A model generated the notes under the pieces. It made no database searches. It was given only the letters and a program-made list of their open reading frames with translations, and had not been told where the DNA came from. Below, piece by piece: positions 3,071 through 63,636 of a DNA stretch of 64,000 nt (position 1 is the stretch's first letter; each line of letters begins with the position of its first letter). The stretch is from Terriglobia bacterium (lineage in GTDB: Bacteria; Acidobacteriota; Terriglobia; 20CM-2-55-15), in assembly GCA_963664115.2 (NCBI GenBank), contig CAXWPJ010000010.1, positions 352,001 to 416,000 on the forward strand, in the 5' to 3' direction. The translations under genes were made by a program, and so were the position numbers.

Positions 3071-4879
3071 ATGAATCTTCGTAACATCGCCATCGTCGCA
3101 CACGTCGACCATGGCAAGACCACGCTCGTCGACGCCATGCTCTGGCAGAGTGGAACGTTTAAGAAGCACCAGACTGTGCAGGACCGCGTCATGGACTCGA
3201 TGGATCTCGAGCGAGAAAAAGGCATCACGATCATGGCCAAGAACACGGCCATTCGATATGGCGACATCAAGATCAACATCGTCGATACACCCGGACACGC
3301 TGACTTCGGAGGTGAAGTGGAACGCACTCTCGGGATGGTCGACGGCATCATGTTGCTTGTTGATGCAGCGGAGGGACCGCTGCCACAGACACGCTTCGTG
3401 CTGTCGAAAGCCCTGGATCTGAAGCTGCCCGCCATCGTCGTCGTCAACAAGGTCGACCGCAAGGATGCACGCGCCGCAGAAGTACTCAACGAGATCTACG
3501 ATCTGTTCATCGATCTCGACGCGACAGAAGGTCAAATCGATTTCCCTGTGGTCTACGCGGTGGCGCGGGAAGGCCAGTGCACTCGCACTCTCGGAGAACC
3601 GCTCACAGACCTGCGACCACTCTTCGACACGATCGTCGATCACATCCCCGCCCCAACTGGCGAGCCGGACCGGTCGTTTCAGATGTTGGTCACGACTGTA
3701 CAGCCGGACGACTACAGGGGACCGCTGGCGATCGGACGCATCGTTACCGGAACAATCCGTAATCGTCAAAAGGTCACCCTCTGCCACCGGGACAGTTCAC
3801 AGACTCAGGCTGAAGTGACCGAGCTGTTTGTTTACGAGGGCCTGGAACGCGTATCGACCGAGGAGGCCGGCCCGGGCGAAATCGTAGCGGTGGCCGGCAT
3901 GACGGGAATCGGGCTTGGCGAAAGCCTCGCAGACGGCGAAGATCCTCACCCCCTTGCACCGTTACACGTGGATGAACCGACGATGTCGATGGAATTCTTG
4001 ATCAACAACTCTCCCTTCAGCGGCAAGGACGGGGCCTACGTGACGTCGCGCCATCTGCGGGAACGCCTGATGAAGGAAGCGAGCAACAATCTTTCGATGC
4101 GGGTGGAAACCACCGATTCGCCAGACCGCTTTGAAGTATTCGGCCGGGGCGAGCTGCAACTGGCAATCCTGATCGAACAGATGCGGCGCGGGGGCTACGA
4201 GTTCTCGGTCGGAATGCCCCGCGTCATCACCCGGGATATCGAGGGACGCAAACACGAACCTTTCGAGCTGGCCCTGGTCGACACCCCGGAAGAGTATATG
4301 GGTGTCATCATGCAGAAGCTCGGGACGCGAAAAGGCGTGATGGGAAAGATGGTCAACCACGGCTCGGGTCGCGTGCGGCTGGAGTTCGACGTCCCCAGCC
4401 GGGGACTGATAGGATACCGGACCGAGTTTCTCACCGACACCAAAGGCACCGGCATCCTCACACATATCTTCAACGAGTTCCGACCGTGGGCGGGCGAGAT
4501 CAAACATCGGGCGACCGGAGCCCTGGTCGCTGACCGGGAGGGCCCCGTCACCGGCTTCGCGGTGATTAATCTGCAGGAGCGCGGTGAGCTCTTCGTCGCA
4601 CCTACCGATAAAGTCTACCGGGGCATGCTGGTAGGAGAAAACAGCCGGGACGCCGACCTCGACGTCAACATCACCAAGGAAAAGAAGCTGACGAACATGC
4701 GGGCGTCGGTCTCAGACACCTACGAGAAAATCGTTCCGCCCCGCCTGATGTCGCTGGAACAGTCCATCGAATTCATCCGCGACGACGAGCTGATCGAGGT
4801 CACTCCAAAACACCTCAGGCTCCGCAAACGCCACCTCGACCCCAACGACAGAAAGCAACACGCCGCACGGAATAATTAG
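3071..4879 (+). CDS. typA: Translational GTPase TypA/BipA
   Basis: [61 protein letters not shown]; 602 aa. Confidence 0.97.
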
Positions 4880-4880
4880 C
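4818..4880 (+). repeat. 63-bp direct repeat, copy 1 (3' end of typA)
   Basis: GGCTCCGCAAACGCCACCTCGACCCCAACGACAGAAAGCA...ATTAGC recurs at 5666-5728; first 40 nt identical, 5 mismatches in total by eye. Confidence 0.9.
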
Positions 4881-4899: not shown

Positions 4900-4989
4900 T
4901 TTTTAACACGGAGGTCACGAAGTTGAGATGTCTTCAGAAAAAGAAACTTCGTGTTCCTTCGTTACTCTTCGTGGTCTTCGTGTTAAAAA
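4900..4989. repeat. ACGAAG-arm inverted-repeat hairpin element
   Basis: TTTTTAACACGGAGGTCACGAAG ... CTTCGTGGTCTTCGTGTTAAAAA with tandem CTTCGT units in the right arm. Confidence 0.7.
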
Positions 4990-5058: not shown

Positions 5059-5364
5059 ATGGATCCGGGGGAACTGCTTACCAACTGCACCGGATTTGAT
5101 TGGGATGAAGGCAATCTGCTCAAAAACTGGGAGAAACATGCAGTCTCAGGCGCCGAATGCGAACAAATTTTCTTCAATCGGCCACTTGTCGCAGAACCAG
5201 TCGCCAAACATTCGGGTGGAGAAATACGGTACTACGTCTTGGGCCAGACAGATTCTGGTCGGCCGCTGTTCTTGGTCTTCACGGTTCGTGGCCAATTGAT
5301 TCGAGTGATTTCGGCTCGCGAGATGAGCCGCAAGGAGCGACGGGAGTACGAGAAACATGGCTAA
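5059..5364 (+). CDS. brnT: BrnT family toxin
   Basis: FDWDEGN..KNWEKHAVS, LFLVFTVRGQLIRVISAREMSRKERREY; overlaps the antitoxin start. Confidence 0.9.
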   Translation: MDPGELLTNCTGFDWDEGNLLKNWEKHAVSGAECEQIFFNRPLVAEPVAKHSGGEIRYYVLGQTDSGRPLFLVFTVRGQLIRVISAREMSRKERREYEKHG

Positions 5365-5656
5365 CAAACTGAAGAAGGTTCCTAGACAGCGGAATGAGGA
5401 TCAGGAGCGGAGCTTTTGGGCAAAGGCGGATTCGACAGGCTATATCGATTGGAGTCGAGCGCGCCCCCTGCTCTTGCCGGGCCTCAAACCGACGCTTAAA
5501 ACCATTTCAATTCGCTTACCTGAACACATGATTGCTGAATTGAAACTTCTCGCAAACAAGCGGGATGTCCCGTATCAAAGCCTGCTCAAGCTCTACCTGG
5601 CGGAACGGATCGACAAGGAGATGAAGCACCTCGGCCCATCGAAACTGAAAGCCTAG
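5357..5656 (+). CDS. brnA: BrnA/CopG-type ribbon-helix-helix antitoxin
   Basis: ERSFW...DSTGYIDWS, TISIRLPEHMIAELKLLANKRDVPYQSLLKLYL; coupled to brnT. Confidence 0.85.
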   Translation: MANKLKKVPRQRNEDQERSFWAKADSTGYIDWSRARPLLLPGLKPTLKTISIRLPEHMIAELKLLANKRDVPYQSLLKLYLAERIDKEMKHLGPSKLKA

Positions 5657-5665
5657 CCAGTCCCT

Positions 5666-5728
5666 GGCTCCGCAAACGCCACCTCGACCCCAACGACAGA
5701 AAGCAGCACGCTGCACGAAACGATTAGC
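5666..5728 (+). repeat. 63-bp direct repeat, copy 2 (duplicated typA 3' end)
   Basis: Diverged copy of 4818-4880 located 9 bp after the brnA stop. Confidence 0.9.
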
Positions 5729-5763: not shown

Positions 5764-5945
5764 TTCACCGCAAAGGCGCAAAGACGCAAAGGAAGATAAA
5801 GACAGGATAGGTTGCCAACGCCGAATTCGACCGGCACCAGTTGGGTTGGCAACACAGTTGTTGGAAACCCACAAAACTGCATGCTGCTCGAATTTAAACA
5901 GCCTATGCCTTCTTTTTCTTTGCGCCTTTGCGCCTTCGCGGTGAA
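5764..5945. mobile_element. CGCAAAG-arm inverted-repeat element, copy 2
   Basis: TTCACCGCAAAGGCGCAAAGACGCAAAGG ... CTTTGCGCCTTTGCGCCTTCGCGGTGAA; core GGGTTGGCAACACAGTTGTTGGAAACCC; ends 3 bp from the lysS stop. Confidence 0.85.
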
Positions 5946-13286: not shown

Positions 13287-13471
13287 TTCACCGCAAAGGC
13301 GCAAAGACGCAAAGGAAGAAAAGATAAAGACGGATAGGCTGCCTACATCCCGCTTAACTAGAGCTATTTGGGTTAGCAAGAAAGTTGTTGAGAACCCATC
13401 GAGCTTCGGTCAGCTGAAATCTCGACAGACCATCCCATCTTCCTTGTGCGCCTTTGCGTCTTTGCGGTAAA
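13287..13471. mobile_element. CGCAAAG-arm inverted-repeat element, copy 5
   Basis: TTCACCGCAAAGGCGCAAAGACGCAAAGG ... CCTTTGCGTCTTTGCGGTAAA; core GGGTTAGCAAGAAAGTTGTTGAGAACCC; between convergent genes. Confidence 0.85.
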
Positions 13472-16072: not shown

Positions 16073-17164
16073 ATGAGAATCATTTCCGTCGCGGGCGCCC
16101 GGCCCAACTTCATGAAGATCGCGCCCCTGGTCGCCGAGTGCAGCAGGGTCTCTGGAATCAACCACTTGCTGGTCCATACCGGGCAACACTACGACACACA
16201 GATGTCAGACGTATTCTTTCGGGATTTGTCCATTTCCTCACCCGATATCGATCTCGGTGTCGGATCGGCGTCCCACGCGGTTCAGACGGCCCGGATCATG
16301 ATGGAATTCGAAAAGGTCTGTACGCGGGAGCTCCCGGACCTCGTTATCGTCGTCGGTGACGTCAACTCGACGATGGCGGCAACCCTGGTAGCGGCCAAGC
16401 TCAACATACCGGTTGCGCACGTCGAAGCGGGCCTGCGCAGTTTCGATCGCGGGATGCCCGAGGAGATCAATCGCATCGTGACGGACCAGTTGGCGGACTA
16501 TCTGTTCACGACGAGCCGGGAGGCGGACGAGAACTTGAAGCGGGAAGGCGTGAACCCTGAGAAGATCCACTTCGTCGGAAACGTCATGATCGACACTCTT
16601 CTCAAGCACCGGGGGAAGGCCGATGGTCTCAACGTTGCCTCCGGGCTGGGAATCGACGGCACAGACTACGCTCTGATGACCCTGCACCGGCCGTCAAACG
16701 TAGACAACCCGGCCGTTCTTCAGGGAATTCTTACCGCCGTTCAGGACATCTCGACATCGCTCCCGGTGATCTTCCCCATTCATCCGCGTACATCGCAACG
16801 GATCCGGGAATTCGATCTCGACGCGATGGTCCACGGCAGCGTCCGTCTGACCGACCCCCTGGGATACCTTGAGTTTCTCAACTTGATGTCGGGAGCCCGC
16901 CTGGTCCTGACCGACTCAGGAGGCCTGCAGGAAGAAACGACGATTCTGGGCGTCCCGTGTCTGACGATCCGGCAAAACACCGAGCGCCCCGTGACAATCT
17001 CCGAAGGCACGAACGAACTGGTCGGGACGGATCCGGTCCGTATTCGGGAAGCTGCAGACAGGATTCTTGCCGGAAATTGGAAAACACCCCGCGTACCCGA
17101 ATACTGGGACGGCAAAGCGGCTGAACGGATTGTTGCGATACTCACCGCGAACGTTTCTGCCTGA
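16073..17164 (+). CDS. wecB: UDP-N-acetylglucosamine 2-epimerase (non-hydrolysing)
   Basis: GARPNFMK, HTGQHYD, VGDVNST, HVEAGLRS, MPEEINR, TDSGGLQEE. Confidence 0.95.
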   Translation: MRIISVAGARPNFMKIAPLVAECSRVSGINHLLVHTGQHYDTQMSDVFFRDLSISSPDIDLGVGSASHAVQTARIMMEFEKVCTRELPDLVIVVGDVNSTMAATLVAAKLNIPVAHVEAGLRSFDRGMPEEINRIVTDQLADYLFTTSREADENLKREGVNPEKIHFVGNVMIDTLLKHRGKADGLNVASGLGIDGTDYALMTLHRPSNVDNPAVLQGILTAVQDISTSLPVIFPIHPRTSQRIREFDLDAMVHGSVRLTDPLGYLEFLNLMSGARLVLTDSGGLQEETTILGVPCLTIRQNTERPVTISEGTNELVGTDPVRIREAADRILAGNWKTPRVPEYWDGKAAERIVAILTANVSA

Positions 17165-17195
17165 ACTGCACAACTGTCGAAGAGAAGCCGAAGAT

Positions 17196-17379
17196 TTCAC
17201 CGCAAAGGCGCAAAGACGCAAAGGAAGATGGGATGGTCTGTGTAGATTTCGTCTGATCGCAACTCTATGGGTTCTCAACGACGTTCTTGCTAACCCGAAT
17301 AACTCCAGTCGAGCGGGATGAAGGCAGGCTATCCCGTCCTGCTTTTTCTTCCTTTGCATCTTTGCGCCTTTGCGGTTAA
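17196..17379. mobile_element. CGCAAAG-arm inverted-repeat element, copy 6
   Basis: Same arms; the interior is closely similar to the reverse complement of the copy 5 interior. Confidence 0.85.
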
Positions 17380-17555
17380 TCCCCTCTTAATTCTTCCCTT
17401 AAATGTCTCGAAAGCCCGGAAAAAGTGGGTCGTTGACCCGGAGGTTATGGGTCAGACGCCCATTCAGTTTCAATAGTTTAGTGGAGGACCATGACATGCT
17501 CAGTCGTCGATGGGTCGGTGACGATGATTACTCTGTTAACTTCGAGTGGGATAAA

Positions 17556-18101
17556 ATGGCACATATGGATACCAAGGGGCCGGCGACGATCGACGATCTC
17601 TATAACGTTCCCGAAGACGGGCGTAAATACGAGCTGGTCGACGGAGAGATTCTGGTGAGCCCGGGTGGGTTCCGCCACGGCCAAGTCTCCGTCCAGATCG
17701 GCTACCTGATCAAACGATTCCTGGAAGGTTCACCGATCGGCGTTGTCTGCGGCGCGGACCTCGGCATTATCTTCCCCAACGGCAACTTGAGATCTCCGGA
17801 CGTAACTTTCGTTCGTAACGAAAAGGTCCCAGCCGGGGAGGCGGCTGAGCGATTTCTTGAGGCTGTGCCCGACCTCGTGGTCGAAGTACTTTCTCCGGGC
17901 GACCACATGCGGCATGTCGCAGACAAGATCGGTGAGTTCCTGGAATCCGGTGTGTGTCTGGTCTGGTTGGTCGACCCTCAGCCCGAAACCGTCACGGTGT
18001 ACCGCTCGTTGACCGATACCCGCCAACTCCGGGGCGACGACCTCATCGACGGAAACTCTGTCCTTCCAGGCTTCAAAGCGAAAGTCTCCGACTTCTTTTA
18101 G
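17556..18101 (+). CDS. Uma2 family (DUF820) PD-(D/E)XK endonuclease
   Basis: KYELVDGEI, RSPDVTFV, PDLVVEVLSPGD, LVWLVDP, VLPGF. Confidence 0.9.
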   Translation: MAHMDTKGPATIDDLYNVPEDGRKYELVDGEILVSPGGFRHGQVSVQIGYLIKRFLEGSPIGVVCGADLGIIFPNGNLRSPDVTFVRNEKVPAGEAAERFLEAVPDLVVEVLSPGDHMRHVADKIGEFLESGVCLVWLVDPQPETVTVYRSLTDTRQLRGDDLIDGNSVLPGFKAKVSDFF

Positions 18102-18142
18102 CTTCAGCTGAACTGCAGATTACTCAGACCGAAACAAAATCT

Positions 18143-18321
18143 TTCACCGCAAAGGCGCAAAGGAAGATGGGTTGGTCTGTGTGAATTGCGTCGGACTGAA
18201 CCTCTATGGGTTCTCAACAGCATTCTTGCTAACCCAGACAGCTCAAGTCGCGCAGAACGTAGGCAGTCTTTCCGTCTTTCTTTCATTTTCTTCCTTTGCG
18301 TCTTTGCGCCTTCGCGGTGAA
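18143..18321. mobile_element. CGCAAAG-arm inverted-repeat element, copy 7
   Basis: Same arms and interior orientation as copy 6; the flanks are also homologous. Confidence 0.85.
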
Positions 18322-18651
18322 TCCCCTCTCAGTTCTTCCTAAAGAAGTCTCGAAAGCTGCGCCTTTGCGGGTCGCGGTTTTAGCGGTCTTTCACTTCCCC
18401 TCTGTTTGATTTCAGTGCGTTAACAACGGACCTCTCCGTGCACTTCTAGTCAGCGTTCCGGTGGATGGCGGGCTTGGGGGCTCAATTAACCGAAGGGCCG
18501 GTGCCTCCGACGTGATTCGCCGGAACTCATTCTCCAAATTCCTCTCGGCGGTTAGAAGGCGAGGCTGTGTATTTACAAATGGAAAGGGCCGCAGTTTCGC
18601 GGGCCGCCGGGAGGAAACACATCCAACCACTATTACCTCAAAGGAGGTTTC

Positions 18652-21576: not shown

Positions 21577-22317
21577 ATGGACGTCTTTCAACTCGAACAA
21601 GCCGTCAAAAAGCGCAGCGACGATTTTGTCCTGGGACCGCTCGACCTTCATCTCTCAGCGGGGGAAATCCTCGGTGTCATGGGCCCTAACGGTGCGGGCA
21701 AAACCACCCTCCTGCGATTGTTGTGGGGCTTTCTGCGTCCGGACGCCGGGCGCGTGTCTGTGTTCGGCAGAACACCCCATCTGGAACAGGTCTGGATTCG
21801 TCTACGGGCGGGCTACCTTCCCGAGTCGTTGAAGTTCTATGACTGGATGACGGTGGATCGATTCCTTGCGTTCATGGCCGGTTTCTATCCGTCCTGGGAC
21901 TGGGGCCATGCCCTTGAACTCCTGGAGCAGTTCGGAATAACTCCCGCCCGGACTATCGGGACCTTATCCAAAGGAAATCGGGTGAAGCTGGGCCTTCTGG
22001 CAGCGGTGGCCCATCGGCCAAAGCTACTGATCCTGGACGAACCGACCTCGGGTCTGGACCCCTTGATACGAATCGACATCCTCCATTTCCTCCGATGCTC
22101 CGCACAAGAAGACGGCACGGGAATCGTCCTGTCCTCTCATGTGTCCGACGATCTGGACCGGATTGCCGATTCCGTTCTGATGCTGAACGACGGCAAGGTA
22201 TTGGAGTATGCGCCGACTAAGGTTCTGCTCGACAAAACCAACGAAACTCAACTGGAGGCTGTGTTTTTGAATGCGGTCGGTAGGATTCCCACATCTCGCG
22301 TTCCACATCGCGCGTAA
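21577..22317 (+). CDS. ABC-2 type transporter ATP-binding protein (putative immunity)
   Basis: GPNGAGKTT, LSKGNRVKL, LLILDEPTSGLDP, LSSH. Confidence 0.88.
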   Translation: MDVFQLEQAVKKRSDDFVLGPLDLHLSAGEILGVMGPNGAGKTTLLRLLWGFLRPDAGRVSVFGRTPHLEQVWIRLRAGYLPESLKFYDWMTVDRFLAFMAGFYPSWDWGHALELLEQFGITPARTIGTLSKGNRVKLGLLAAVAHRPKLLILDEPTSGLDPLIRIDILHFLRCSAQEDGTGIVLSSHVSDDLDRIADSVLMLNDGKVLEYAPTKVLLDKTNETQLEAVFLNAVGRIPTSRVPHRA

Positions 22318-22906
22318 AGACTGGGCCGAAGCGCGTCATGTCGTGATCGCGCTGACCCTGGGTCTTATGGTTCCCGCCCTGCTCGTCCGCTTCGCTCCGG
22401 GCCGTTCGGACGACTTCGCAAAAGGTCTGCTGGCCGGCTTGCTCGCAGGTGCCGGTTTCGGCTACGCCCAGTTCTGTTTCCTGAACGAACGCCAGCGAGG
22501 CACACTGGAGTTTCTGCTCAGCCTTCCCATTGAGCCCCGACAGCTTGTCCTCGCCAAATTCGTCTCCCTGTACTCAATGGTCCTTTTCACCGTAAATGTC
22601 CCTGGCCTGCTCGTCCCAGACCTTCGGCTCGTCTACATCACCAACGCCGCAGCCCTTTCACTAGCAACCGTCTTCATGGCCACAACGGTCATCTCAGACA
22701 AGCCCTGGGCCTCGCAAATACCCATCTGGTTCCTTCTCGTCTTCATCCTCCCCATCCAACGCCTCCTCGAACGCTACTACCCCAACGGACTGCAGCTCTT
22801 CGAAACCCTCACCGCCAACCCCATTCTGTTAGCGACATTCGCCTTGCTCGTCAGCCCGCTCGTTGTCGCTGTATCCGTTTCGATTTTTCACCGCAAAGGC
22901 GCAAAG
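22271..22906 (+). CDS. ABC-2 type permease (putative immunity); no own stop, reads in frame into the GxxExxY gene
   Basis: About 6 TM segments; ERQRGTLEFLLSLPIEPRQLVLAKF motif. Confidence 0.8.
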
Positions 22907-23393
22907 GTGAATGAGAACCCTTTGTCACGGAAGGTCATTGGGGCCGTAATTGAAGTGCACCGCATCTTAGGCCCGGGCCTACTAGAGTCGATTTATCAAG
23001 ACTGCCTCGACATTGAGTTCCGGCTTCGAAGAATCAGGTTCGAAAGGGAAAAGAGAATCCCTCTCATCTACAAAGACCAAGATCTGAGAGAGCGCCTTCG
23101 TATCGACTTTCTCGTCGCAGATGAAGTCGTAATCGAAACCAAATCCGTTCACTCGTTACTGCCCGTACATGACGCGCAAGTGCTCACGTACCTAAAGTTG
23201 ACCGGCTGCAAATTAGGTCTGCTGATCAACTTCAACGTCCCAGTAGCAAGAGACGGAATCAAACGCATCGTAAACCGCCTCTAGCCCCCCCCCTTTTCGT
23301 TTGCATCGACGCCCCCTTTGTTTCCCATTCGGATTCCCCCTCCCCCATATAGAATCGTCTTTCTTCTTTGCGTCTTCGCGCCTTTGCGGTGAA
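22887..23393 (+). mobile_element. CGCAAAG-arm element, copy 9, enclosing a GxxExxY nuclease gene
   Basis: Left arm TTCACCGCAAAGGCGCAAAGG abuts the GTG start; right arm CTTTGCGTCTTCGCGCCTTTGCGGTGAA. Confidence 0.8.
22907..23284 (+). CDS. GxxExxY protein (PD-(D/E)XK nuclease fold)
   Basis: VIGAVIEVHRILGPGLLESIYQDCL, RIDFLVADEVVIETKSV, HDAQVLTYLKLTGCKLGLLINFNV, GIKRIVN. Confidence 0.92.
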   Translation: MNENPLSRKVIGAVIEVHRILGPGLLESIYQDCLDIEFRLRRIRFEREKRIPLIYKDQDLRERLRIDFLVADEVVIETKSVHSLLPVHDAQVLTYLKLTGCKLGLLINFNVPVARDGIKRIVNRL

Positions 23394-44906: not shown

Positions 44907-45899
44907 ATGATACGGAAAAGTCGGGTTGTTTGGCTGATCCCCTTCCTGTTCGTGGCCTGTGGTGGGCCCCCGAACGAAACGGCCACAAGTCCGCTTACAC
45001 AAATTGACCCGGCCGACGCCGAGGCCCAGTACAACCTGGCTCTGAGGTATTACGATGGCGAGAGCGGGGCGGCCGATTACGGCGCGGCGCGGGTGTGGTA
45101 TGAGAGGGCAGCCGCACAGGACTATGCCCCCGCGCAGTACAACCTGGCTTTGATGTACTACGACGGCGAAGGTGGGACCCGGGACTACAGTGTGGCGCGG
45201 CGATGGTATGAGAGAGCAGCCGAACAAGGATATGCTCCTGCGCAGCTCAACCTGGCTTTGATGCATTACGACGGCGAAGGTGGGACCGCCGACCATAGCG
45301 CGGCGCGCAGCTGGTATGAGAGCGCGGCCAAACAGGGACATCCCGATGCCCAATTCCTGTTGGCGCTGATGTATCACGAGGGCGAAGGCGGGGCCGTCGA
45401 CCACAGTGCGGCGCGGGCGTGGCATGAGAGTGCGGCCCGACAGGGCTATGCGACCGCGCAGTTCAATCTGGCGTTGATGCATTACACCGGCGAGGGCGGA
45501 GCTGCCGACTACAACGCGGCGCGGGCGTGGTACGAGAGAGCAGCCCAACAGAGGTATGCCCCGGCGCAGTTCAATCTGGCGCTGATGTACTACGCGGGCG
45601 AAGGTGGAGCCGTCGACTACAGTGTGGCGCGGACATGGTATGAGAGTGCGGCCCGTCAGGGGTATGCGCCGGCGCAGTTGAGTGTGGCGTTAATGTATTA
45701 CAACGGGGAGGGTGGGCCACCGGACGTCACTTTGGCCTATGCGTGGTTCCATGCTGCAGCTGAGCAAGGTGAGGCAGACGCGGCTGAATACCGGGAAAGT
45801 TTAGACGCAGCCTCTGAGTGGCCCAACGGCACCTCTCTCACAGAAGCTCAGCAGCTTGCAGACATGTACTATCAGACGTACGTGGAGCCATTTAATTGA
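44907..45899 (+). CDS. Sel1-repeat lipoprotein
   Basis: Lipobox-like FVAC; seven 36-aa Sel1 repeats (AQ.NLALMYY.GEGG..DY..AR.WYE.AA.QG), 108-bp tandem units. Confidence 0.9.
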   Translation: MIRKSRVVWLIPFLFVACGGPPNETATSPLTQIDPADAEAQYNLALRYYDGESGAADYGAARVWYERAAAQDYAPAQYNLALMYYDGEGGTRDYSVARRWYERAAEQGYAPAQLNLALMHYDGEGGTADHSAARSWYESAAKQGHPDAQFLLALMYHEGEGGAVDHSAARAWHESAARQGYATAQFNLALMHYTGEGGAADYNAARAWYERAAQQRYAPAQFNLALMYYAGEGGAVDYSVARTWYESAARQGYAPAQLSVALMYYNGEGGPPDVTLAYAWFHAAAEQGEADAAEYRESLDAASEWPNGTSLTEAQQLADMYYQTYVEPFN

Positions 45900-54278: not shown

Positions 54279-54398
54279 GACGGTCGCTTTCTCATGATCT
54301 CCGCAGCGAACCAACCTGAATTCGGTCTCAATCGTCCTCAAATCAACATCGTCCTCAACTGGTTTGAAGAACTGAAGGAACGGTTGCCGGTGCCGTAA
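54279..54398 (+). pseudogene. Ser/Thr kinase (TolB/PD40-propeller type) C-terminal remnant 1
   Basis: DGRFLMI...PQINIVLNWFEELKERLPVP*. Confidence 0.7.
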
Positions 54399-54433
54399 AA
54401 CAGGCCGTTTGTTCCTGTCTATCGCTGAAATCC

Positions 54434-54475
54434 ATTCTCAAGTCCTGAGAAATCATCTTCTCGGACGTTGAGAAT
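54434..54475. repeat. Bulged-hairpin repeat (other copies at 58628-58666, 63441-63477, half copy reversed at 51516-51534)
   Basis: TTCTCAA-GTCC-T-GAGAA-ATCATC-TTCTC-GGAC-G-TTGAGAA. Confidence 0.8.
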
Positions 54476-54543
54476 TGAAACCACCACTTTCCGCTAAGGC
54501 GACCAACCTTCGATTGGGGCATATGGACGGTTTGCCGACTATA

Positions 54544-55390
54544 TTGTGCCACGAGCATAGAAGGCCGAATGGCCTTCGAGTGCGCAACTGCTCAACTGAT
54601 GAGGGAGGGCCCCTCGGAATCGGCTTGCAGGAGTTGGTTTCAAACCACCTTTGGCGGCTGTGGTCAAAAGCCATGGTCGTGAGCGCGTAAGGAAAAGGCC
54701 CGGCAGTGATCGGGTCAGGTGTCAGGCAAGAAGAGGACCGCAAGGGAACCACTGCTGAAGTGTCGAAAGCTTAGAGACGATGGCCAAAACCGCGGAGTTA
54801 TAGTTGCTGCGGGATGAGATCCGACGATACCTGTTTACGGGCGGAGTGGCCTCCGGCATGAGAGGTGGCCTGAGCTTGCCAAGAGGCGGTTGAGCGGAAC
54901 GTGGGAACCTGAACTTCGATGCTAACGGAGAAGCCACAAGTGGAAGCACCACGAGGGCGAGAGTACGGATGCGGGGTTCAGGGGCGGACTGCCTTGTAGT
55001 AGTGATGAACCTCTTGTAATGAGAGGGGAGCGAAGGGGGCAGGCCATTCGCGTCATGGTCCATGAACTCAGGAGGAACCGACTGTTGTGGCGGGGAGCAA
55101 CAGTAAGCCGTGTGAGAGAGGGGACGTCCGCGTTGCGCCTTGAAAGGGAAGTCTAGTCAGCCTGCCGTGGCAAATTCGCGTCATGGTCACTGCCGTAGAC
55201 AGGGAGGGAGTTGATAGCCCCGAAATCGATCGTGGTTGAAGTAGCCGACCTTGTCAACTGGTAACAGGAGGAACCGACTGTTGTGGCGGGGAGCAACAGC
55301 TCTCAGTGAATGGCAAGAGCCGTGTGAGTTGAGAGGCTCACGCACGGTTCTGTGAGAGGCTCGGGGTGAAATTCCCCGGGCCTACTCGGC
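54544..55390 (+). ncRNA. ORF-less group II intron, RmInt1-like (bacterial class D)
   Basis: TTGTG 5' end; DI-DIII landmarks (GGAACGTGGGAACC, GAGAGTACGGATGC, GTAGTAGTGATGAA, GTAATG...GGAGCGAAGGGG); DV GAGCCGTGTGAGTTGAGAGGCTCACGCACGGTTC; DVI ending CCTACTCGGC; no RT ORF. Confidence 0.8.
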
Positions 55391-55623
55391 CGTCAAGTAG
55401 AAGGTCGACTGATGTGCCAGAGGGCGGCTTGTGCGGCGTTGACGATCAATTCCCTAAACACTAGGCGACAAGGGTGGATCTATCTCACGAATCTCACTCA
55501 GCTCCCTTTATCAGAGATGGCGGAACCGGCGACCCGAATCGAGGAGGACCTGACTCCAGGGCTCTTTGACAGACGGAATAAACGACGGCGTCGGAGAATG
55601 GCCGTGCTGGCAATGCCAGCAGA
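55360..55623 (+). repeat. 264-bp direct repeat, copy 1 (intron DVI + 3' exon); copy 2 at 56243-56506
   Basis: CTCGGGGTGAAATTCCCC...GCAATGCCAGCAGA appears identical in both copies by eye. Confidence 0.9.
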
Positions 55624-56241
55624 GGGCTGACGTCAGGTGGCGGATCAGCGGAATAAGCAGGGTCTGGTGTTATGGAACCGACAAAGACAAAGCTCGTTGA
55701 ATTCGGTCGCTTTGCTCAGCGGGATGCGGGCAAGCACGGGAGAAAACGTCCAGAAACGATCTACTTTCTGGGCATGACCCTGTACTGCTCGCAGAATCGC
55801 AAAGGCAATTTCCGGGTGGGATTGCGCACTGAGAAGTCTCGACTTCAACGCAGTCTGGCCCATCTACGCGATCTGATGAGACGAATGCGTCACTTGCCGG
55901 TCCGGGAGCAGGTTCAGAATCTGAATCGGGTCTTGCGTGGTCACTACGCCTACTACGGCATCGCCGGAAACTTCCGGGCCCTCCAGCACGTTGCTCGGGT
56001 CGTGGAGCGTTACTGGCGCAAGATGCTGAGCAGCCGGAGTCGCGCTGGTTACGTCCGGTGGGAGGTATTCAACCGGATTAAGACGCGCTTTCCGTTGCAG
56101 CGGCCCAAGCTGGCGCTTCCGTATCGGGAGTTCCAGTCTCTTGCTGTGTTGTGAATCCGTTTCTGAAGAGCGTAGTGCGGGAAATCCGCACGCTACGTTC
56201 TGTGGGAGCCGGAGGCGGGTGACCGCCTCTGGCGACCCGGT
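55624..56241 (+). mobile_element. 3' fragment of a second group II intron (RT/maturase C-terminus 55672-56154 plus DV/DVI)
   Basis: KTKLVEFGRFA, ETIYFLG, LNRVLRGHYAYYGIAGN (domain X); DV GAGCGTAGTGCGGGAAATCCGCACGCTACGTTC. Confidence 0.85.
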
Positions 56242-56957
56242 CCTCGGGGTGAAATTCCCCGGGCCTACTCGGCCGTCAAGTAGAAGGTCGACTGATGTGC
56301 CAGAGGGCGGCTTGTGCGGCGTTGACGATCAATTCCCTAAACACTAGGCGACAAGGGTGGATCTATCTCACGAATCTCACTCAGCTCCCTTTATCAGAGA
56401 TGGCGGAACCGGCGACCCGAATCGAGGAGGACCTGACTCCAGGGCTCTTTGACAGACGGAATAAACGACGGCGTCGGAGAATGGCCGTGCTGGCAATGCC
56501 AGCAGACGACTATGGCAGCGCTGTCAATGTCGTCGTATGAGTGTTATGTCAACCCGCGCGCGGCCACAGGCCGTCGCGCGACGGAGGCGTACTTTACAGA
56601 ACGTCGAGGAGCCCGACCAAGCGCAACGCAACACTGGCGGATGGATCCGGCGCTGGAGCGGACAACTCGTGAGAACTGCGGGTTAGGGACGAAACCTGCT
56701 GGTGCCGAAACCGTTAACCAAAGAATTAGAGGTGGGAGAGCACAATCAGAAGGCCGCCAGCCCGCTTGACCTGACCCTGGCATCAACTCGTCGCGACGAC
56801 GTTAGCTTGCCCGTGCCCCGCAGTTCCACGCCCGGCATCGCTTCATTGAGTGGTAACGCGGGTGGTAACACCCATCAAGCGCTGGCGCCCGGATGAAACA
56901 GGATCGAAGCGGGGCACAAGCGCAGCGCTGAACACAGTTCGTTGCAGAGATTGAACG

Positions 56958-57764
56958 TCACACCGAGATTACGATCAGGTAGATCAGCAACCCGACCGGA
57001 TAGACAAGGCCGACGTTCGCCATGTTGGACGCGGTGAGATTGTCGAGCACCTCCTGCGTGTCAGCCAGCGATCCCAGCTTCCCCGCAGCTCGTGCGCTAG
57101 CGTAGACTGAAAAAAAGGTGATGGCCTCCGGCAGGCTGGAGGTGAAGCCCAGGATCAAACCGGCGATCGCGGGGCTTATGCCGATGCGGTTGACCACGTT
57201 CTCCGTCGCCCCGCCCAGGAAGAAGCCGGCGATGGCGAGGGTGACCAGGGCGGTCGCGGTCAGGATCAGGCCGATTCTGAGGCTGCCGGCGGCCGGCTCG
57301 CCGCCGCCCTCGAGCTCCGCGCGGTTTACCCGAACGTCAACGAAGCGGTACAGACCGAAGAACAGGAGCAGGACCGGAATCACCGTCCAGCTTTCGTCGA
57401 TGCCGTACAGCATGAGTACGATCGGGGCCACGATGGCGAGGACGGCGAACAGAATCTCGTCCAGGAACCGCCTGTTGAAGAGGTCGGGTAACTGGAGGTT
57501 CCACCCGGCTGCGAAACCCATGAGGATGAAATTGATTATGTTACTGGACGCGATGTTCCAGAGACCGGCTTCCCACACGCCCGCCAGACCCGCGGCGACC
57601 AGGCACACGAACTCCGGAGCGGAGGTCGCGAAGCCCGTCCACTGGCCGCGCGCCTTGGCCGTCCACTTCAGCGAAGCGGCCACATGCTCGATGCCCGTCA
57701 CGAGCCCGAATTTCGCGATCAAGATGATCGCCCCGGCCGAGAGGACCATGATCAGAATGGACAT
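56958..57764 (-). CDS. Sodium:calcium antiporter-family membrane protein
   Basis: Two alpha-repeats GFATSAPE...NIASSNIIN and GFTSSLPE...ASNMAN; multiple TM segments. Confidence 0.72.
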   Translation of the reverse strand: MSILIMVLSAGAIILIAKFGLVTGIEHVAASLKWTAKARGQWTGFATSAPEFVCLVAAGLAGVWEAGLWNIASSNIINFILMGFAAGWNLQLPDLFNRRFLDEILFAVLAIVAPIVLMLYGIDESWTVIPVLLLFFGLYRFVDVRVNRAELEGGGEPAAGSLRIGLILTATALVTLAIAGFFLGGATENVVNRIGISPAIAGLILGFTSSLPEAITFFSVYASARAAGKLGSLADTQEVLDNLTASNMANVGLVYPVGLLIYLIVISV

Positions 57765-57879
57765 CCATGCTTCCTCTCGCCGCTTCCGGCGGCAATGAAA
57801 CGACAACACTCACCTGGGCGATCGACCCGGAACGGACCCGCCATTGCCGGGGCTGGGATTGTTCGATGTCGGGTTACGC

Positions 57880-58464
57880 CATAGTACTACGTGCTCCCCA
57901 ACTGGACGTTACGGCTTCTGCCCATGCGCTTCAACCGCAGACGGCGATGCCCTGAAGGTCAGCAAAGCGCTGCTCTGCAAATTTCCCGGTGAGATCGCGG
58001 AGGGAAACGGCAAGCGCCAAATCGTAATTGACGAACGGGCCGACGACGCGCAACGCACGTCGCTCGAGACGATTATCTCAGGCGAAGCGTGCGAACCCTT
58101 CAGCAATCATTTCTCTGTCTTCGGTTCATTATGCACGGAGTTTTTCGACACGCTCGTTCTGCCGATCGAACTCGAAGTGGACCTCGAGCGCAGAACGGCT
58201 AAGGTCGATATTCCAGGTGTCCTGAAGAGTGCTGGCAGGCCGATCATCAACAAGTTCAATGGCGAACCGTTCCACATTGCGATTGCACGTCCGACTGGCA
58301 GCTTCGAATTTACCTATGGGGAAATCGGACGCGGAACGACCGCAGTGACGGGTGACATGGAGATGTCGTTCGAAGATTCATGGGCGCTGTATTGTGTTCA
58401 CCACTACGATCAGAATGGTTTGATTCACTCAAGATCGAAGCTCACAGACTGGTTTGGAGCCTGA
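57880..58464 (+). pseudogene. DUF1326 family protein, N-terminally truncated
   Basis: FPGEIAEGNGKRQIVIDERADDAQR..LETIISG, PTGSFEF; the Cys-rich N-terminus is degenerate and there is no good start. Confidence 0.6.
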
Positions 58465-58545
58465 ATTCGCGTTCCCCTGAATGACGGCAATGGGTCAAAG
58501 CGGAAGGTGTTGTCCGCCGACCAGACTTAAGCCGCTGTACCTGGT

Positions 58546-58611
58546 CGACCGCAGATCCGTGTCGTTCTGAACTGGTTTGAAGAACTGAAAGACCGGGTGC
58601 CGGTTCCATAG
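58546..58611 (+). pseudogene. Ser/Thr kinase C-terminal remnant 2
   Basis: RPQIRVVLNWFEELKDRVPVP*, followed by the same bulged hairpin as remnant 1. Confidence 0.7.
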
Positions 58612-58727
58612 ATGACCATGAAAATGATTCTCAAGTCCTGTAAATCATCTTCTCGGACATTGAGAACTGTAATTCCTGAAAACTGCTATGAATTGGGCCT
58701 GGCTTCCTGTCAGACGTTGCGATGTGC

Positions 58728-58768
58728 CCGAAGTGCTTTCGGAAGGTTACGGACAAGACGTTGGTCGA
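58728..58768 (+). repeat. ~41-bp dispersed repeat (other copies at 59245-59285, 59457-59494, and 61098-61110 + 62505-62533 split by IS256)
   Basis: Consensus CCGAAGTGCTTTCGG.AGGTTACGGA.AAGACGTTGGT.GA. Confidence 0.7.
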
Positions 58769-59021
58769 ACTGTATGGGCTCTGGTCCTCAATTGGCGAAG
58801 CTGTTCATAACTATAATTATTGTATTTACTACAACTTAGCTAGAATTTGGTCTGTTTTTCCTCTCGTGTTCAATTATGTCCCCGAACTATGCTTCCGCCG
58901 AACGCAGAGTTCCTACGATGGGTGACGAGGCGTTTGGCTTCTTTTCGGAGGAGTTCAAAATGGGCGTGAGCCTTAGGATGCACGCTCTAATAAGTATGCT
59001 TATTGTCAGGAGGACAACAGG

Positions 59022-59165
59022 ATGGAACCGAAGAATATCGAAGGATTCGAGCTCGAACTTGAAATTAAAGTAGAAGAATTAGAAGAGCGCATCGCTCCCG
59101 GCGAGTTGGTTTGGCCCTTCCCTGGTGGCGGCAAAGGCAAAGGCGGAGGCCACGGCGGTCGCTAA
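59022..59165 (+). CDS. 47-aa peptide, putative RiPP-like precursor or secreted peptide
   Basis: AGGAGG RBS; MEPKNIEGFELELEIKVEELEERIAPGELVWPFPGGGKGKGGGHGGR*; own terminator; below the ORF-track cutoff. Confidence 0.75.
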   Translation: MEPKNIEGFELELEIKVEELEERIAPGELVWPFPGGGKGKGGGHGGR

Positions 59166-59173
59166 AGCATTCT

Positions 59174-59210
59174 GTGAATCCCCTGTCGCTTGACAGGGGA
59201 TTCGCTTTTT
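59174..59210 (+). terminator. Rho-independent terminator
   Basis: GTGAATCCCCTGTC-GCTT-GACAGGGGATTCGC followed by TTTTT. Confidence 0.85.
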
Positions 59211-59296
59211 CTCCTCCCACTTGCTGTCTGAACCCGCGAAATGCCCGAAATGCTTTCGGGAGGTTGACGAAAAAAGTCTGATGGGCATGGTGCTTT

Positions 59297-59458
59297 ATGA
59301 AGTGCCCCAGGTGTGACTCGGAAGACGTTCGGCGTTCTCGCCGTAGCTTACTAGATCGGTACGCTCGCTTCTTTCTCCTTCCATTCCGTTGCCGAAATTG
59401 CAATAGGCGATTCTACCGCTTTCGTTTCCTGCTCTCGCAACCGACAGCGAAACATTAA
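59297..59458 (+). CDS. 53-aa basic zinc-ribbon protein
   Basis: MKCPRCDSEDVRRSRRSLLDRYARFFLLPFRCRNCNRRFYRFRFLLSQPTAKH*; two CxxC pairs. Confidence 0.6.
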   Translation: MKCPRCDSEDVRRSRRSLLDRYARFFLLPFRCRNCNRRFYRFRFLLSQPTAKH

Positions 59459-59732
59459 GTGCTTCAGAGAGGTTACGGAGAAGAGGCTGGTGGAGCCAAA
59501 GTGATTCTCAACTTCCGCGAAGGTCGTTTGAACTAAGCCGCTGGCGCGGCGGACACGTTGCGTGCGTGGTCGAGGACCTTGCCTGACCGAGAGAGGGTTT
59601 CGCGTTGTTACCGTTTGGAAAGTTCCCGGAGGTAACGGCTCGTGACGGTTACGTGGACGAGTTCGAGCTGCCACTGACGAAAGCTCTGGGCGCTCGACTT
59701 CTTGGCGAATGTTACCGCGACCTAAATGGGGG

Positions 59733-60935
59733 CTACATGTTGAGTCCTTCGCTGATCCGGCGAGCCCACCCCAACGAATCTAGGTAGTGGCTCCGAATTG
59801 TCATGGGCGGGAGGTCCTTGTAACGAACCTGATCCCACTCACCCCGCTCGTAAGCAAGCACACACTGGAGCGCGTCGCCAAGAGATCCTTCCGAGCGTAT
59901 CAACGCGGATTTGATTTCACTCGAAACGGGAATATCTCCGAGCGCCTCTTCCATGGGACAATCCATCAGAGCGTCGAGAACTGACAACAGACCGACCGTA
60001 AAGAACGTCTCTCGTGGCCCCTCGTCTGCTGAAGAAGCCAGTCTTTCGCACATAGCGGCCCGCACGATTGCCGTGGTCATAAGCTCGGGCGGCTTATCCT
60101 CCATCTTGCAAAACATCAGAAGGCTCGCCCATACGCGAATCCGCTCGATTCCAACCATCTTGACAGCGTGGTTGATTGACTTCATAGGCCGATCCAGCCC
60201 CATGAAAGCGGAGTTCGCAAAGCGCAACAACTTGTAGCTAAGCGTAACGTCGGCGCTAATCGTTGCCTCCAGTTCGTTCGAGCTGACGTCCGGGTTCTGG
60301 AGATTCGCTAAGACCCGCAACGCGCCCAGGCGACTGACGGATATAATCGTGGCTTCGCCGTTAGGTGTACAGAAGAAGTTTCCCCGGTACATGTCGAAGT
60401 TGTGCTGCTGGCACAACTCGAATTGTTTATAGGTATCGACATGGTCGGCCAGCAACTGGATGTTGGGACGGGATAACCGATCGACCTGCTTGGCCAGTTC
60501 GTCATCATTCAAATCAAGAACGTTGATCCGAACAATATCCGCAATCGACCGTCCGTTTCCGTTCAAGGACTCGAGCATCGTGCTTCCGACCGCGATCTTG
60601 AATCCCATTCTGGACAACTCAAGAAGCGCATCCGTGAAGGCGGTGTCGGAGACAATATCATCGAGCACCTCCAACACAACCCGGCGCTTTGAAAGAGACA
60701 GACAATGCCCGGCGATCACGGCTTCACGGGATACGCTCACGAAGGCTTGATGGTCCCCAACAATCTGATCGAGACGATCTTCGGTAAAAGTGCCCAGATC
60801 GTCACGTAGAGTGTCCAGCTCGCCGGCCGTGGGGAGAGGTCCTCTGTGTTCACGGGGCTGTGAAACGAGTGCGTAGGCTCGCAACCGCACGTTGGACTTG
60901 TATATTGGTTTTCGACTAACGTGTGGTTTTTTCAT
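59733..60935 (-). CDS. Degenerate EAL + HDOD domain signalling protein
   Basis: VSRKPIY, VVLEVLD, RGNFFCTP, DVTLSYKLLRFANSA, RAAMCE, FFTVGLLSVLDAL, AYERGEW. Confidence 0.85.
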   Translation of the reverse strand: MKKPHVSRKPIYKSNVRLRAYALVSQPREHRGPLPTAGELDTLRDDLGTFTEDRLDQIVGDHQAFVSVSREAVIAGHCLSLSKRRVVLEVLDDIVSDTAFTDALLELSRMGFKIAVGSTMLESLNGNGRSIADIVRINVLDLNDDELAKQVDRLSRPNIQLLADHVDTYKQFELCQQHNFDMYRGNFFCTPNGEATIISVSRLGALRVLANLQNPDVSSNELEATISADVTLSYKLLRFANSAFMGLDRPMKSINHAVKMVGIERIRVWASLLMFCKMEDKPPELMTTAIVRAAMCERLASSADEGPRETFFTVGLLSVLDALMDCPMEEALGDIPVSSEIKSALIRSEGSLGDALQCVLAYERGEWDQVRYKDLPPMTIRSHYLDSLGWARRISEGLNM

Positions 60936-61110
60936 GCCTTCTTCCCGACCGGGCAGGGTTCAAGTCCTCCGTGATTTGTTGGCCACCTTCGGTGAGGCGC
61001 TGTCGCCTGAGTTTTCTGCCTACTGGCGTTCGAGCCTCGACACCTTACCTATCGGAAAATTGACTTACTATCTTTACTATAAAAACTGTACCGTCTACCG
61101 AAGTGCTTTT

Positions 61111-62495
61111 GAGTTATTGTCAAAAGTGGTGTTTAGGAGATTGATTCAAGCGGCGGCCTGATCGACTTGTGTCGCTTCGACACCATCGTTGAATTTCACT
61201 CCGATGATTACCTTGCTCAGATCATCGAATCCTCGTAATCGTCGCCAATTGTTCTCAGCGCACTGGCCCAGTTTGAACATCATGTGCAGCATGCCATCCC
61301 GTGTCAGGCAACCTCTGGATCGCTTCGTTCGGTGTCGAATGGTGGCAAAGGTCGACTCAATGGGATTCGTCGTTCTGATGCTCTGCCAGTGCTTGGCCGG
61401 AAAGTCGTAAAAGGCCAGCAGTTCCTCTCTGTCTTTCTGCAGGCAGAGTGTGGCTTTCGGATACTTCGGTTCATAGGTTTCAATGAACAAGTCGAATGCC
61501 TTCTCGGCGTCTGCCTTCGTCTCGGCCTGCCAGATCGAGTGCAGGGCCTGTTTCGCCTTCGCCTGGACCGACTTGGGCAGGCAGTTGAGGACGTTCATGA
61601 CTTTGTGCATCCAGCAACGTTGTTGACGTGTCTCGGGATAGATTTCCTCCAGTGCGGCCCAGAACCCCATCGCACCGTCACCGATGGCCAACTTCGGAAC
61701 ATTCATCCCACGGGACTTCAGCTTCAACAAGACCTCGCGCCAACTCTGTGTCGATTCCCGTACACCGTCTTCGATCGCCAGGAAACGCTTCTCTCCGCGT
61801 TCATTCACGCCGATCACGACCAATGCACACAACTTGGTTTGTTCCGCCCGAAGTCCGCTGTAGATGCCGTCGGCCCAGACATAGACCCAGCGATCTGCAT
61901 CCAAACGCTCCTCGCATCCGAGGCGGTACTGTTCGCCCCAAACCTGTTTCAACCGCGATACCGTGCTCGCCGACAGACCCTGCGCCTGGGGACCGACAAG
62001 AACTTTTAGGGCCTCACCCATCTCGCCGCTGGAAACGCCTTTCAAATACAACCACGGCACCGCTGCTTCCAGCGACTTCGTCTTCCGAATGTACGGTGGT
62101 ACCAGGGCCGATCGGAACGTCACAGCTTCGCCCGTCTTGGCACGGACCTTCGGGATTTGGACTGTTACCGGACCCAATCCCGTCTGCAGTTCGCGTTCCG
62201 GCAGATAACCGTTGCGTACCACCCCGGCGTTTCCTGTCTCAGTTCGCCGGCCACCGTGCTGGGATAGCAGCTCTGCCAATTCGGCTTCCACTGCGCGTTG
62301 GATCAGTTGCTGTGCCCCAACTCGTAGTAGTTCTGTTACTGGATCCTCAATCGTTTCTCGACCTTCCGGTCCATTCACGTTACTCTTGCTCACAGTGGCG
62401 TATCTCCTATGGTTGCTTTGAAGTTTTGTCACAACAAATCAACCAGATACGCCGCTCTTATTCAATCCCTCAAACACCAGATTCGGTTATAACTC
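61111..62495 (-). mobile_element. IS256 family insertion sequence
   Basis: TIRs GAGTTATTGTCAAAAGTGGTGTTT / GAGTTATAACCGAATCTGGTGTTT; 9-bp TSD AGTGCTTTT (61102-61110, 62496-62504). Confidence 0.9.
61146..62393 (-). CDS. IS256 family transposase
   Basis: RNGYLPER, LYLKGVSSG, YVWADGI, AIGDGAMGFW, QRCWMHK, IRTTNPIES; AGGAGA RBS before GTG. Confidence 0.95.
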   Translation of the reverse strand: MSKSNVNGPEGRETIEDPVTELLRVGAQQLIQRAVEAELAELLSQHGGRRTETGNAGVVRNGYLPERELQTGLGPVTVQIPKVRAKTGEAVTFRSALVPPYIRKTKSLEAAVPWLYLKGVSSGEMGEALKVLVGPQAQGLSASTVSRLKQVWGEQYRLGCEERLDADRWVYVWADGIYSGLRAEQTKLCALVVIGVNERGEKRFLAIEDGVRESTQSWREVLLKLKSRGMNVPKLAIGDGAMGFWAALEEIYPETRQQRCWMHKVMNVLNCLPKSVQAKAKQALHSIWQAETKADAEKAFDLFIETYEPKYPKATLCLQKDREELLAFYDFPAKHWQSIRTTNPIESTFATIRHRTKRSRGCLTRDGMLHMMFKLGQCAENNWRRLRGFDDLSKVIIGVKFNDGVEATQVDQAAA

Positions 62496-62684
62496 AGTGC
62501 TTTTGGGGAGATTACTGAGAAGACGTTGGTGGAGGGAGCGTAATTCAAACTACCACCTTCCCAGTTCCCTTGACTCCCCTCCGGCCCGTCCATAGAGTCA
62601 CAGCATAGAAATCACGCTTGATATTGAAATCGAAGAGTTGGAATGCCACGTCGGCGAGCCGATTCCCGAAATTAGGAGGTAACG

Positions 62685-63335: not shown

Positions 63336-63636
63336 GCTTCGTTCGTCGGCTTCGTGTCTCGGTGTTGAATGCTCTACTTCCGCGTCTCGATTCCTCTTTC
63401 AAGTGGGTACACGTATCCCTCAGTTCCTAATTCTGGAAGTTCAAGTCCTGAGAAATCATCTTGTCGGACATTGAGAATTTCAGCGAACGGAAGCTAGAAC
63501 GCAGCCCGACGCTACCCCTACGTTGCCCCAAGGACACGCGCGTAGCCTGTAACCAGTTGATTCCGTGGTGCTAAATGTTTTGAATCTACTGACAACTAGT
63601 CAGCTTCCTGCCGAATGGCTGGATTTCGAGGCGCCA

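Follow-up and report, generated by a model that had tools for sequence, protein, structure and literature searches.

The window analysed here, a 64,000-nt stretch of a Terriglobia genome (the host genome, G000; relatives are coded G, L or P and read runs X), carries downstream of the UDP-GlcNAc 2-epimerase gene wecB a single small gene for a Uma2-family putative endonuclease, set between two diverged direct repeats, A and B, each of which starts with the 3' end of wecB and encloses a hairpin of a dispersed family. The features concerned, in window coordinates, are the following.

16073 to 17164, plus strand: wecB, UDP-GlcNAc 2-epimerase (TIGR00236, 347.7 bits with a cut-off of 210; PF02350), whose last four codons and stop are duplicated.
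17151 to 17446, plus strand: copy A, comprising the last wecB codons and stop, a 35-nt spacer, a hairpin and a copy of the downstream spacer; the right edge is approximate.
17196 to 17379, no strand: hairpin A, in which a 115-nt interior separates the arms 17196-17228 and 17347-17379; the genome has 46 copies in all.
17344 to 17357, plus strand: 14 nt identical between A and B (18286-18299 on the B side), where read run X16 switches from A to B (one contig).
17447 to 18101, plus strand: the non-duplicated insert, a leader of about 110 nt followed by Uma2; the left edge is approximate.
17552 to 17557, plus strand: a possible -10 box, TAAAAT, followed after 7 nt by an ATG in frame (17565), an arrangement conserved in homologues.
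17556 to 18101, plus strand: the Uma2-family gene, intact, encoding a putative PD-(D/E)XK endonuclease of 181 residues (PF05685, 122.5 bits).
18100 to 18388, plus strand: copy B, comprising the decayed last four codons of wecB, the spacer, a hairpin (18143-18321) and the downstream spacer, as delimited by sequence comparison.
13287 to 13470, minus strand: a third member of this interior subfamily, in inverted orientation, its flanks unrelated.

A reading of the window from its sequence only had proposed that the segments 17161-17415 and 18108-18357 are homologous beyond their hairpins, and this is borne out: 194 of 247 aligned positions match (78.5%), and when the 46 non-redundant elements are set against one another in 2,070 oriented comparisons, the A and B flanks together rank first (z 6.2), as does the right flank alone, the left flank alone ranking ninth. 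The motif positions given in that reading are likewise confirmed: within the window CTGAACTGCA is confined to 17161 and 18108, in both cases 35 bp before a left arm (17196 and 18143), and AATCCCCTCT (17378 and 18320) and GTCTCGAAAGC (17405 and 18347), which follow the right arms, have no other occurrence in the window. A further motif, TCCCCTCTTA, had been pointed out after the hairpin preceding brnT. It is indeed present there, at 4991, but the arms of that hairpin are of another type; a further copy of the 10-mer stands at 49223 on the opposite strand, so that little can be built on it. The homology is wider than the core first described, extending over about 17151-17446 and 18100-18388, so that the local duplication proposed to start at the wecB end reaches even into the last four wecB codons; the duplicated target measures about 290 bp, around a Uma2 unit of about 650 bp. 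Copy B starts inside the Uma2 stop codon and runs on into the ancestral downstream DNA. The interiors behave differently from the flanks: that of A shares 84% with the element at 13287-13470 and 77% with that of B, and the interior similarity of A and B is a subfamily trait, whereas their flank similarity exceeds family resemblance. The flanks match only each other and do not mark a mere element subfamily spread over unrelated loci, and among 13 pairs of neighbouring elements less than 4.2 kb apart, A and B are the only pair with matching flanks.

The insert of about 650 bp holds only Uma2, with no integrase or transposase and no open reading frame (ORF) for a methyltransferase. The likely start codon is at 17556 or 17565, the former being taken from a 181-residue homologue, P0001, which is 93% identical and encoded in a 4.9-Mb contig; relatives of known structure are 9y1l, 1wdj, 6okh and 3ot2 in the PDB. 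A TACAAT box, followed at 7-nt spacing by ATG, is found in six of six Uma2 homologues inspected, and a sigma-70 scan returned no full promoter ahead of the gene; the box suggests that Uma2 may carry its own leaderless promoter, and the gene would appear to be a self-transcribed passenger. The genome has two Uma2 copies, and pieces of the gene without differences are found in two runs labelled sponge metagenome.

The hairpins in both repeats belong to a REPIN-like family dispersed at gene 3' ends. The genome has 49 paired elements, 46 after removal of a 14.3-kb assembly overlap (C9:1-14285 duplicates C10:366445-380728 at 99.9%), which doubles wecB, Uma2 and the GxxExxY gene described below in genome searches and was taken out of the counts; 37 unpaired arms are counted with the overlap included. 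Folded as single-stranded DNA (ssDNA), element A reaches -47.7 kcal/mol (z -6.7, 0 of 200 shuffles) and element B -35.6 kcal/mol (z -4.5, 1 of 200). By a crude gene caller, a gene 3' end adjoins 44 of the 46 elements, within 60 nt for 38, and divergent gaps hold two of them, as against 557 of 2,474 gaps overall (p 0.002). Duplicated flanks are found at one of the 46. Elements at orthologous sites in G000 and G002, a member of the same genus, are 60-70% identical, with other arm variants and in one case (2832) a reversed interior, and hairpins of other types lie 3' of wecB in G008, G009 and G010. Three candidate identities were discarded: neither tblastn nor blastn gives a meaningful match for the interiors of the 46 elements as decayed GxxExxY genes (best E 0.74 and 0.089); Rfam yields only sub-threshold hairpin matches and none over the gathering score in window positions 1-30000; and a four-helix-bundle gene as hairpin partner was not found in the genome.

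Long ssDNA hairpins just after stop codons recall the attC sites of integrons, and the statement of the sequence-only reading that no integron integrase is in view holds for the window but not for the genome, which encodes one on another contig (C9:714608-715549; TIGR02249, 440 bits with a cut-off of 265). The region around it (L161, C9:710000-715550) looks like a complete integron, the integrase being accompanied by attC-like palindromes and by four to five ORFs that resemble cassettes. It is nevertheless highly improbable that the hairpins are attC-like and Uma2 an orphan cassette moved in trans by this integrase. The sites beside the integrase share no arm sequence with the elements, the RYYYAAC/GTTRRRY core pair is found in 0 of 46 elements, and A and B are without the conserved AAC triplet of attC R boxes (criterion from PMC4889954), having CAC on the left. 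The switch from A to B in X16 does not fall at the outer GTT of the site (one contig). An integrase cut would fall about 30 nt from this crossover, which lies at the inner end of the right arm. Furthermore, integrases are not known to duplicate the ends of host genes, and it is housekeeping genes that most elements follow. A folding scan for attC did not recover the integron sites that the genome has on C9 and thus had no working control. A composite transposon built of insertion sequences (IS) or miniature inverted-repeat transposable elements would call for a short target duplication beyond the outer repeat ends and for the same unit at unrelated loci; here the duplicated DNA is a host gene end with its spacer, and Uma2 was found with these elements only at wecB.

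Comparison of the wecB locus across strains, which the sequence-only reading had put forward as a check, shows the Uma2 unit present in some relatives and absent from others. Twenty-one relatives were examined, 18 of them with more than 1.2 kb downstream of wecB; one of these 18, G017 from the sister genus, has Uma2 there (75% amino-acid identity), as does the metagenome contig L094 (73%). In both, Uma2 lies between unrelated hairpins and without duplication (repeat scores 11.8 and 9.8, within chance). G002, whose wecB product is 89% identical, has a single target copy after the wecB stop and no Uma2, and its downstream DNA continues like that of B. A further state is seen in the 97%-identical strain of X16, where one contig of 1,484 nt (depth 5.9) joins copy A to copy B: it follows 16096-17343 with 28 differences and then 18286-18521 with 12, skipping 942 bases, and at the joint (17343 to 18286) 14 letters fit both sides. 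Past the joint this contig is B-like at 8 or more of 10 diagnostic sites, and read depth in bins over Uma2 is 0 to 1.6, against 5.9 for the joining contig. Twelve runs from four studies contain at least 85% of the window form. Two other gaps of the same neighbourhood also contain related Uma2 genes: in G048 the gene is beside a four-helix-bundle gene, and G021 (L061:3500-5900) combines GxxExxY, a Phd-type antitoxin pair and two tandem Uma2 genes, separated by three hairpins of another repeat family. In G004 (L005/L051) the wecB contig is nearly identical to that of G007, from another genus, and the typA-lysS contig is like that of genus g1; it is possible that G004 is mis-binned, so that it provides no independent g1 data point.

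The age of Uma2 at this site can be gauged against wecB itself. Compared with G017, Uma2 and wecB have diverged equally, at 0.768 and 0.767 in amino acids, 0.710 and 0.714 in nucleotides and 0.40 each at four-fold sites, which implies that Uma2 has been with the locus since before the genus split, or arrived linked to it. In a tree of 27 proteins (midpoint root, no clade test) the three wecB-site Uma2 proteins and P0001-P0003 group at 97/92. By sequence comparison, the duplication is younger than the residence of Uma2 at wecB; and since G017 and L094 have Uma2 at wecB with no duplication around it, the duplication does not mark a first capture. The right flank of A matches the spacer after Uma2 in G017 (z 4.3, 0 of 300 shuffles), less closely that in L094 (7 of 300), and also the spacer after the hairpin in G007, which is without Uma2 (1 of 300); it has no match to the spacers preceding Uma2 (299 of 300 shuffles for G017, 271 of 300 for L094). 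The first 50 nt of B side with G002 at 11 sites and those of A at three (p 0.057). A thus bears a downstream spacer and B a wecB end, so that both look like copies of a Uma2-less allele, with Uma2 placed between them. One event, an insertion with a target duplication of about 290 bp, suffices for this arrangement; copying around a resident Uma2 needs two.

On balance, these comparisons make the locus probably an old insertion, its target duplicated over a long stretch, into a Uma2-less wecB allele. The incoming DNA would have come from a relative that carried Uma2 at wecB, making the event a re-acquisition; staggered ends may have been joined by break repair or by homology-assisted illegitimate recombination, with one join falling on the two bases shared in the Uma2 stop codon, and homologous recombination between the repeats would later have popped Uma2 out, as in the X16 strain. 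The hairpin was likely duplicated merely because it lay inside the target, and the Uma2 locus is likely a scar of a type already known rather than a new cassette system.

The X16 allele, being exactly A-left joined to B-right at the 14-nt identity, would also fit a Campbell-type cycle, in which Uma2 and one target copy arrive as a circle excised from another species and one crossover within the right arm integrates them. X16 would then show the allele before insertion; A-left and B-right would be native, and the foreign part would comprise A-right, Uma2 and B-left. The divergence of A from B resembles the level between species, and repeat-bounded units amplify, as in the tandem Uma2 pair of G021 between its three similar hairpins. 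We regard this cycle as unlikely all the same: its donor must already have the duplication, so that it explains spread and not origin; B-left, foreign in the model, is the part most like G002; and the occurrence of the 93%-identical P0001 gene in a 4.9-Mb contig fits older residence. The age of Uma2 at the site, together with the presence of subfamily members at unrelated loci and the replacement or flipping of orthologous-site elements between G000 and G002, accords with another history, in which two elements of one subfamily inserted independently on either side of a resident Uma2 and gene conversion later spilled into their flanks. This requires two copying events, one to bring the wecB end behind Uma2 and one to bring the downstream spacer before it, and flank spill-over is seen in none of the 12 other neighbouring pairs; it is accordingly improbable.

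Several points weigh against an old insertion with target duplication. A, B and the G002 copy are near-equidistant, with 194 of 247 (78.5%), 192 of 255 (75.3%) and 189 of 247 (76.5%) positions matching; sites at which A equals B form the largest class (27, versus 22 and 18), giving a star-like relation of the three. Given this near-equidistance, donor and recipient cannot be assigned and the direction of events is not fixed. A mosaic signal was looked for in the 3' part of wecB and none was found, and the homology of the leader to that of G017 is not significant (z 1.8). ComEC has no match in the genome, which is 97% complete, while DprA is present; transformation is thus not supported as the route. 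The X16 joint is one contig, and contigs from runs X17 and X18 of the same sample end at 17224 (the 15 of 108 joints covered in a wide read comparison give no usable empty sites for other elements). Finally, gene-end scars, treated below, lie at two of 44 hairpin-bearing ends, compared with four of about 3,900 others (p 0.002, post hoc), a hint that the hairpins are not neutral bystanders.

A second locus in the window had been held to be another instance of the same pattern. Its features are:

4818 to 4880, plus strand: 3' end of typA (TIGR01394), first copy of a 63-nt duplication.
4904 to 4985, no strand: a hairpin between typA and brnT whose arms are of another type, assigned from sequence.
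5059 to 5656, plus strand: the brnT-brnA toxin-antitoxin pair (PF04365, PF12441), between the typA ends.
5666 to 5728, plus strand: second copy of the typA 3' end, 57 of 62 positions identical to the gene, followed by a hairpin of the main family at 5764-5945.

It is an instance as far as a gene end is duplicated around a small cargo, but the hairpins that follow the two 63-nt copies are of unlike type. The second typA-end copy is shared with G002 and absent in G001 and G004. Within G000, and likewise within G002 (L048), the typA-end copies share genome-specific bases, in G002 including bases after the stop; this suggests that conversion between the copies, or separate re-duplication, may have taken place.

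Gene-end duplications beyond these two loci are found by a genome scan, which the sequence-only reading had also envisaged. Among 3,962 gene ends there are 11 hits, as against 3 of 3,962 mid-gene controls, and when read individually these are three tails of a kinase family, two paralogue pairs, one IS end and five scars; wecB is missed by the scan, as only about 12 coding bases are duplicated there. Scars also lie away from these hairpins, among them some around toxin-antitoxin-like genes. A radical-SAM (UPF0004) gene has a second copy of its 3' end 2,167 bp further downstream, with an alpha/beta hydrolase gene in between (L160, C9:77000-80400 of G000). At L159 (C9:872001-884000 of G000), roughly eight toxin-antitoxin-like genes or pairs (three DUF433, DUF5615, Fic with helix-turn-helix (HTH), a Gp49-like protein with HTH, DUF2283 and an addiction-module antitoxin) are stacked between three extra 3' ends of a sigma-54 activator and a partial duplicate of tRNA-Val. 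One of the five scars lies in this stack, where scars accumulate at C9:876-882 kb and the main hairpin family has no paired element. Uma2 loci were scored for flanking repeats in a set of 38 (the top-ranked 36 of 164 family matches plus three known, one being dropped for its short flank): six have such repeats, compared with two of 188 control genes, and these six are the window locus, three tandem paralogues, a heptamer repeat and a 22-nt match. At metagenome Uma2 loci, flanking repeats are found at none of the 12 with downstream sequence (13 of 15 examined). Scars at gene ends are thus a recurrent feature, though not one that belongs to these hairpins.

Repeats of other kinds also occur in the window: several copies of another genome-wide repeat at 54332-63479, tied to the tails of a large family of kinase-like paralogues; a 269-nt direct repeat at 55360-56511, 99% identical, 883 bp apart and IS-end-like; and a 108-bp tandem coding repeat at 45019-45750.

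The third proposed cargo, GxxExxY, stands apart from the other two.

22887 to 23393, plus strand: the GxxExxY gene (22907-23284; TIGR04256, 147 bits) with an arm on either side, the left one at 22887-22906 and the right one at 23364-23393.

This gene, single-copy in the genome, lies between inverted arms of the main hairpin family. In this genome no gene-end copy goes with it, and it is more aptly taken for a partner gene than for a cargo. The same arrangement of GxxExxY between arms is found in g1, g4 and g10 relatives, with arm sequences that vary by genome, and 14 of the 46 elements lie within 70 kb of GxxExxY where 1.3 are expected. Across 35 genomes of the family, in which kin are not independent, PF13366 has a match in 13 of 16 genomes with ten or more arm matches and in 6 of 19 others, the corresponding numbers for Uma2 being 14 of 16 and 14 of 19; the hairpin family thus tracks GxxExxY and not Uma2. 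Arms with no PF13366 match are found in G002, G023 and G024. On this distribution GxxExxY is likely the partner gene of the repeats, and its predicted protein likely maintains the hairpin family. An ORF for an ABC-2 membrane protein runs in frame through the left arm into GxxExxY (22271-23284, a fusion frame of 337 residues), and similar long frames occur in G004 and G007 (324 residues). In G021 (L061:6300-6480) and G013 (L126), an ABC-2 gene-end copy of about 35 nt and a decayed arm precede the left arm of GxxExxY; there is no cargo in this duplication, and in G013 GxxExxY is down to 31 codons between the arms.

A partner nuclease of this kind leads to the possibility of hairpin-driven capture, in which GxxExxY or Uma2 nicks a hairpin, and repair inserts small nuclease or toxin-antitoxin genes at gene ends and duplicates the target. 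In its favour are the placement of 44 of 46 elements at gene 3' ends, their concentration near GxxExxY and its frequency in arm-rich genomes, the scars at two of 44 hairpin-bearing ends, and the cargo-less ABC-2 gene-end copy at the GxxExxY left arm in G021 and G013. The proposal is unlikely on the other evidence: 45 of 46 elements are without duplicated flanks, a number that also lends no support to the repeatable capture put forward in the sequence-only reading; among 796 ORF ends in syntenic regions of 11 genomes the only cargo-bearing gene-end copy is typA-brnTA (G000 and G002); the other five repeat-flanked Uma2 loci are the tandem paralogues, heptamer repeat and 22-nt match; the scars at C9:876-882 kb stack with no paired family element nearby; the arms do not track Uma2; and a GxxExxY match is missing from G002 and G023 despite their many arms. 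In its most specific form, nicking by GxxExxY at 3'-end hairpins, followed by repair, would provide for the integrase-free entry, duplication, amplification and pop-out of small nuclease and toxin-antitoxin genes, a doubtful proposition with a rather small chance of being right; were it true, wecB-Uma2, typA-brnTA and G021 would be stages of one cycle, and long target duplication would have an enzymatic cause.

Known systems resemble parts of this locus to different degrees. Uma2 (COG4636) has been described as a predicted PD-(D/E)XK endonuclease, likely a solo toxin, often found in paralogue cassettes (Makarova et al., 2009, PMC2701414); G021 and G024 match this pattern, whereas the host genome has two Uma2 genes and the one at wecB is an old resident of one locus. 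The Ssn nucleases with their NTS/SRM repeats (Chenal et al., 2025, PMC11893778), for which an IS-like origin is proposed, are similar in that a small single-domain nuclease gene is flanked by dispersed cognate hairpins; they differ in being GIY-YIG enzymes with shown ssDNA cleavage, while GxxExxY and Uma2 are PD-(D/E)XK proteins (PF13366, PF05685) with putative cleavage. The main text of that paper makes no mention of Uma2, PDDEXK or duplication, and a literature search, with supplements outside its scope, found no paper on Uma2 or GxxExxY with cognate flanking hairpins or duplications. REPINs and their RAYT partners (Bertels and Rainey, 2011, PMC3116915) share the extragenic inverted doublets with a spacer, the long hairpins, the clustering near a partner gene and the occurrence of tandem copies that include flanks. 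Here, however, the partner is a PD-(D/E)XK GxxExxY inside the arms and not an HUH RAYT, and the tandem units described for REPINs are near-identical, with short DNA rather than a gene between them. The genome's Y1_Tnp hits are two and weak (38 bits), at C10:490-493 kb, with no paired element within 100 kb.

Closer to the proposed event are homology-facilitated illegitimate recombination and 3'-end displacement (Kirchberger et al., 2017, PMC5361080; Touzain et al., 2010, PMC2884548), which are integrase-free and use an upstream homology anchor, the incoming DNA displacing the old gene end downstream. The cases described in these papers are mostly from competent species, whereas here there is no ComEC match, and both copies at wecB look like the cargo-less allele. 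The movement of lone toxin-like genes without a recombinase in and out of housekeeping regions is the wider question to which such cases belong.

The closest likeness is to the long target duplications of restriction-modification (R-M) genes (Furuta, Abe and Kobayashi, 2010, PMC2853133), with repeats of 46-423 bp, some of them overlapping gene 3' ends. Shared features are a nuclease gene with neither integrase nor transposase, long diverged direct repeats, a single site in a relative, and amplification via the repeats. An event of this kind calls for direct repeats longer than 30 bp that align to one copy in a relative and are not simply dispersed, around an insert shorter than 20 kb; at wecB the repeats measure about 290 bp and are single in G002 and in the X16 contig, the insert measures about 650 bp, and the hairpin core is dispersed, with flanks that match only each other. 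The differences are that the cargo is a lone Uma2 and not a restriction and modification pair, by which the 2010 survey chose its cases, that the repeats are older (78% identity, against 93-100% in the published rows inspected), that the target contains a dispersed hairpin, and that the same gene stands unduplicated at the same site in a sister genus. By itself, the wecB-Uma2 locus does not show a new mechanism; what it adds to the published long target duplications is a clean comparative case in three states, with Uma2 present without duplication, with duplication, and absent from a hybrid empty allele.

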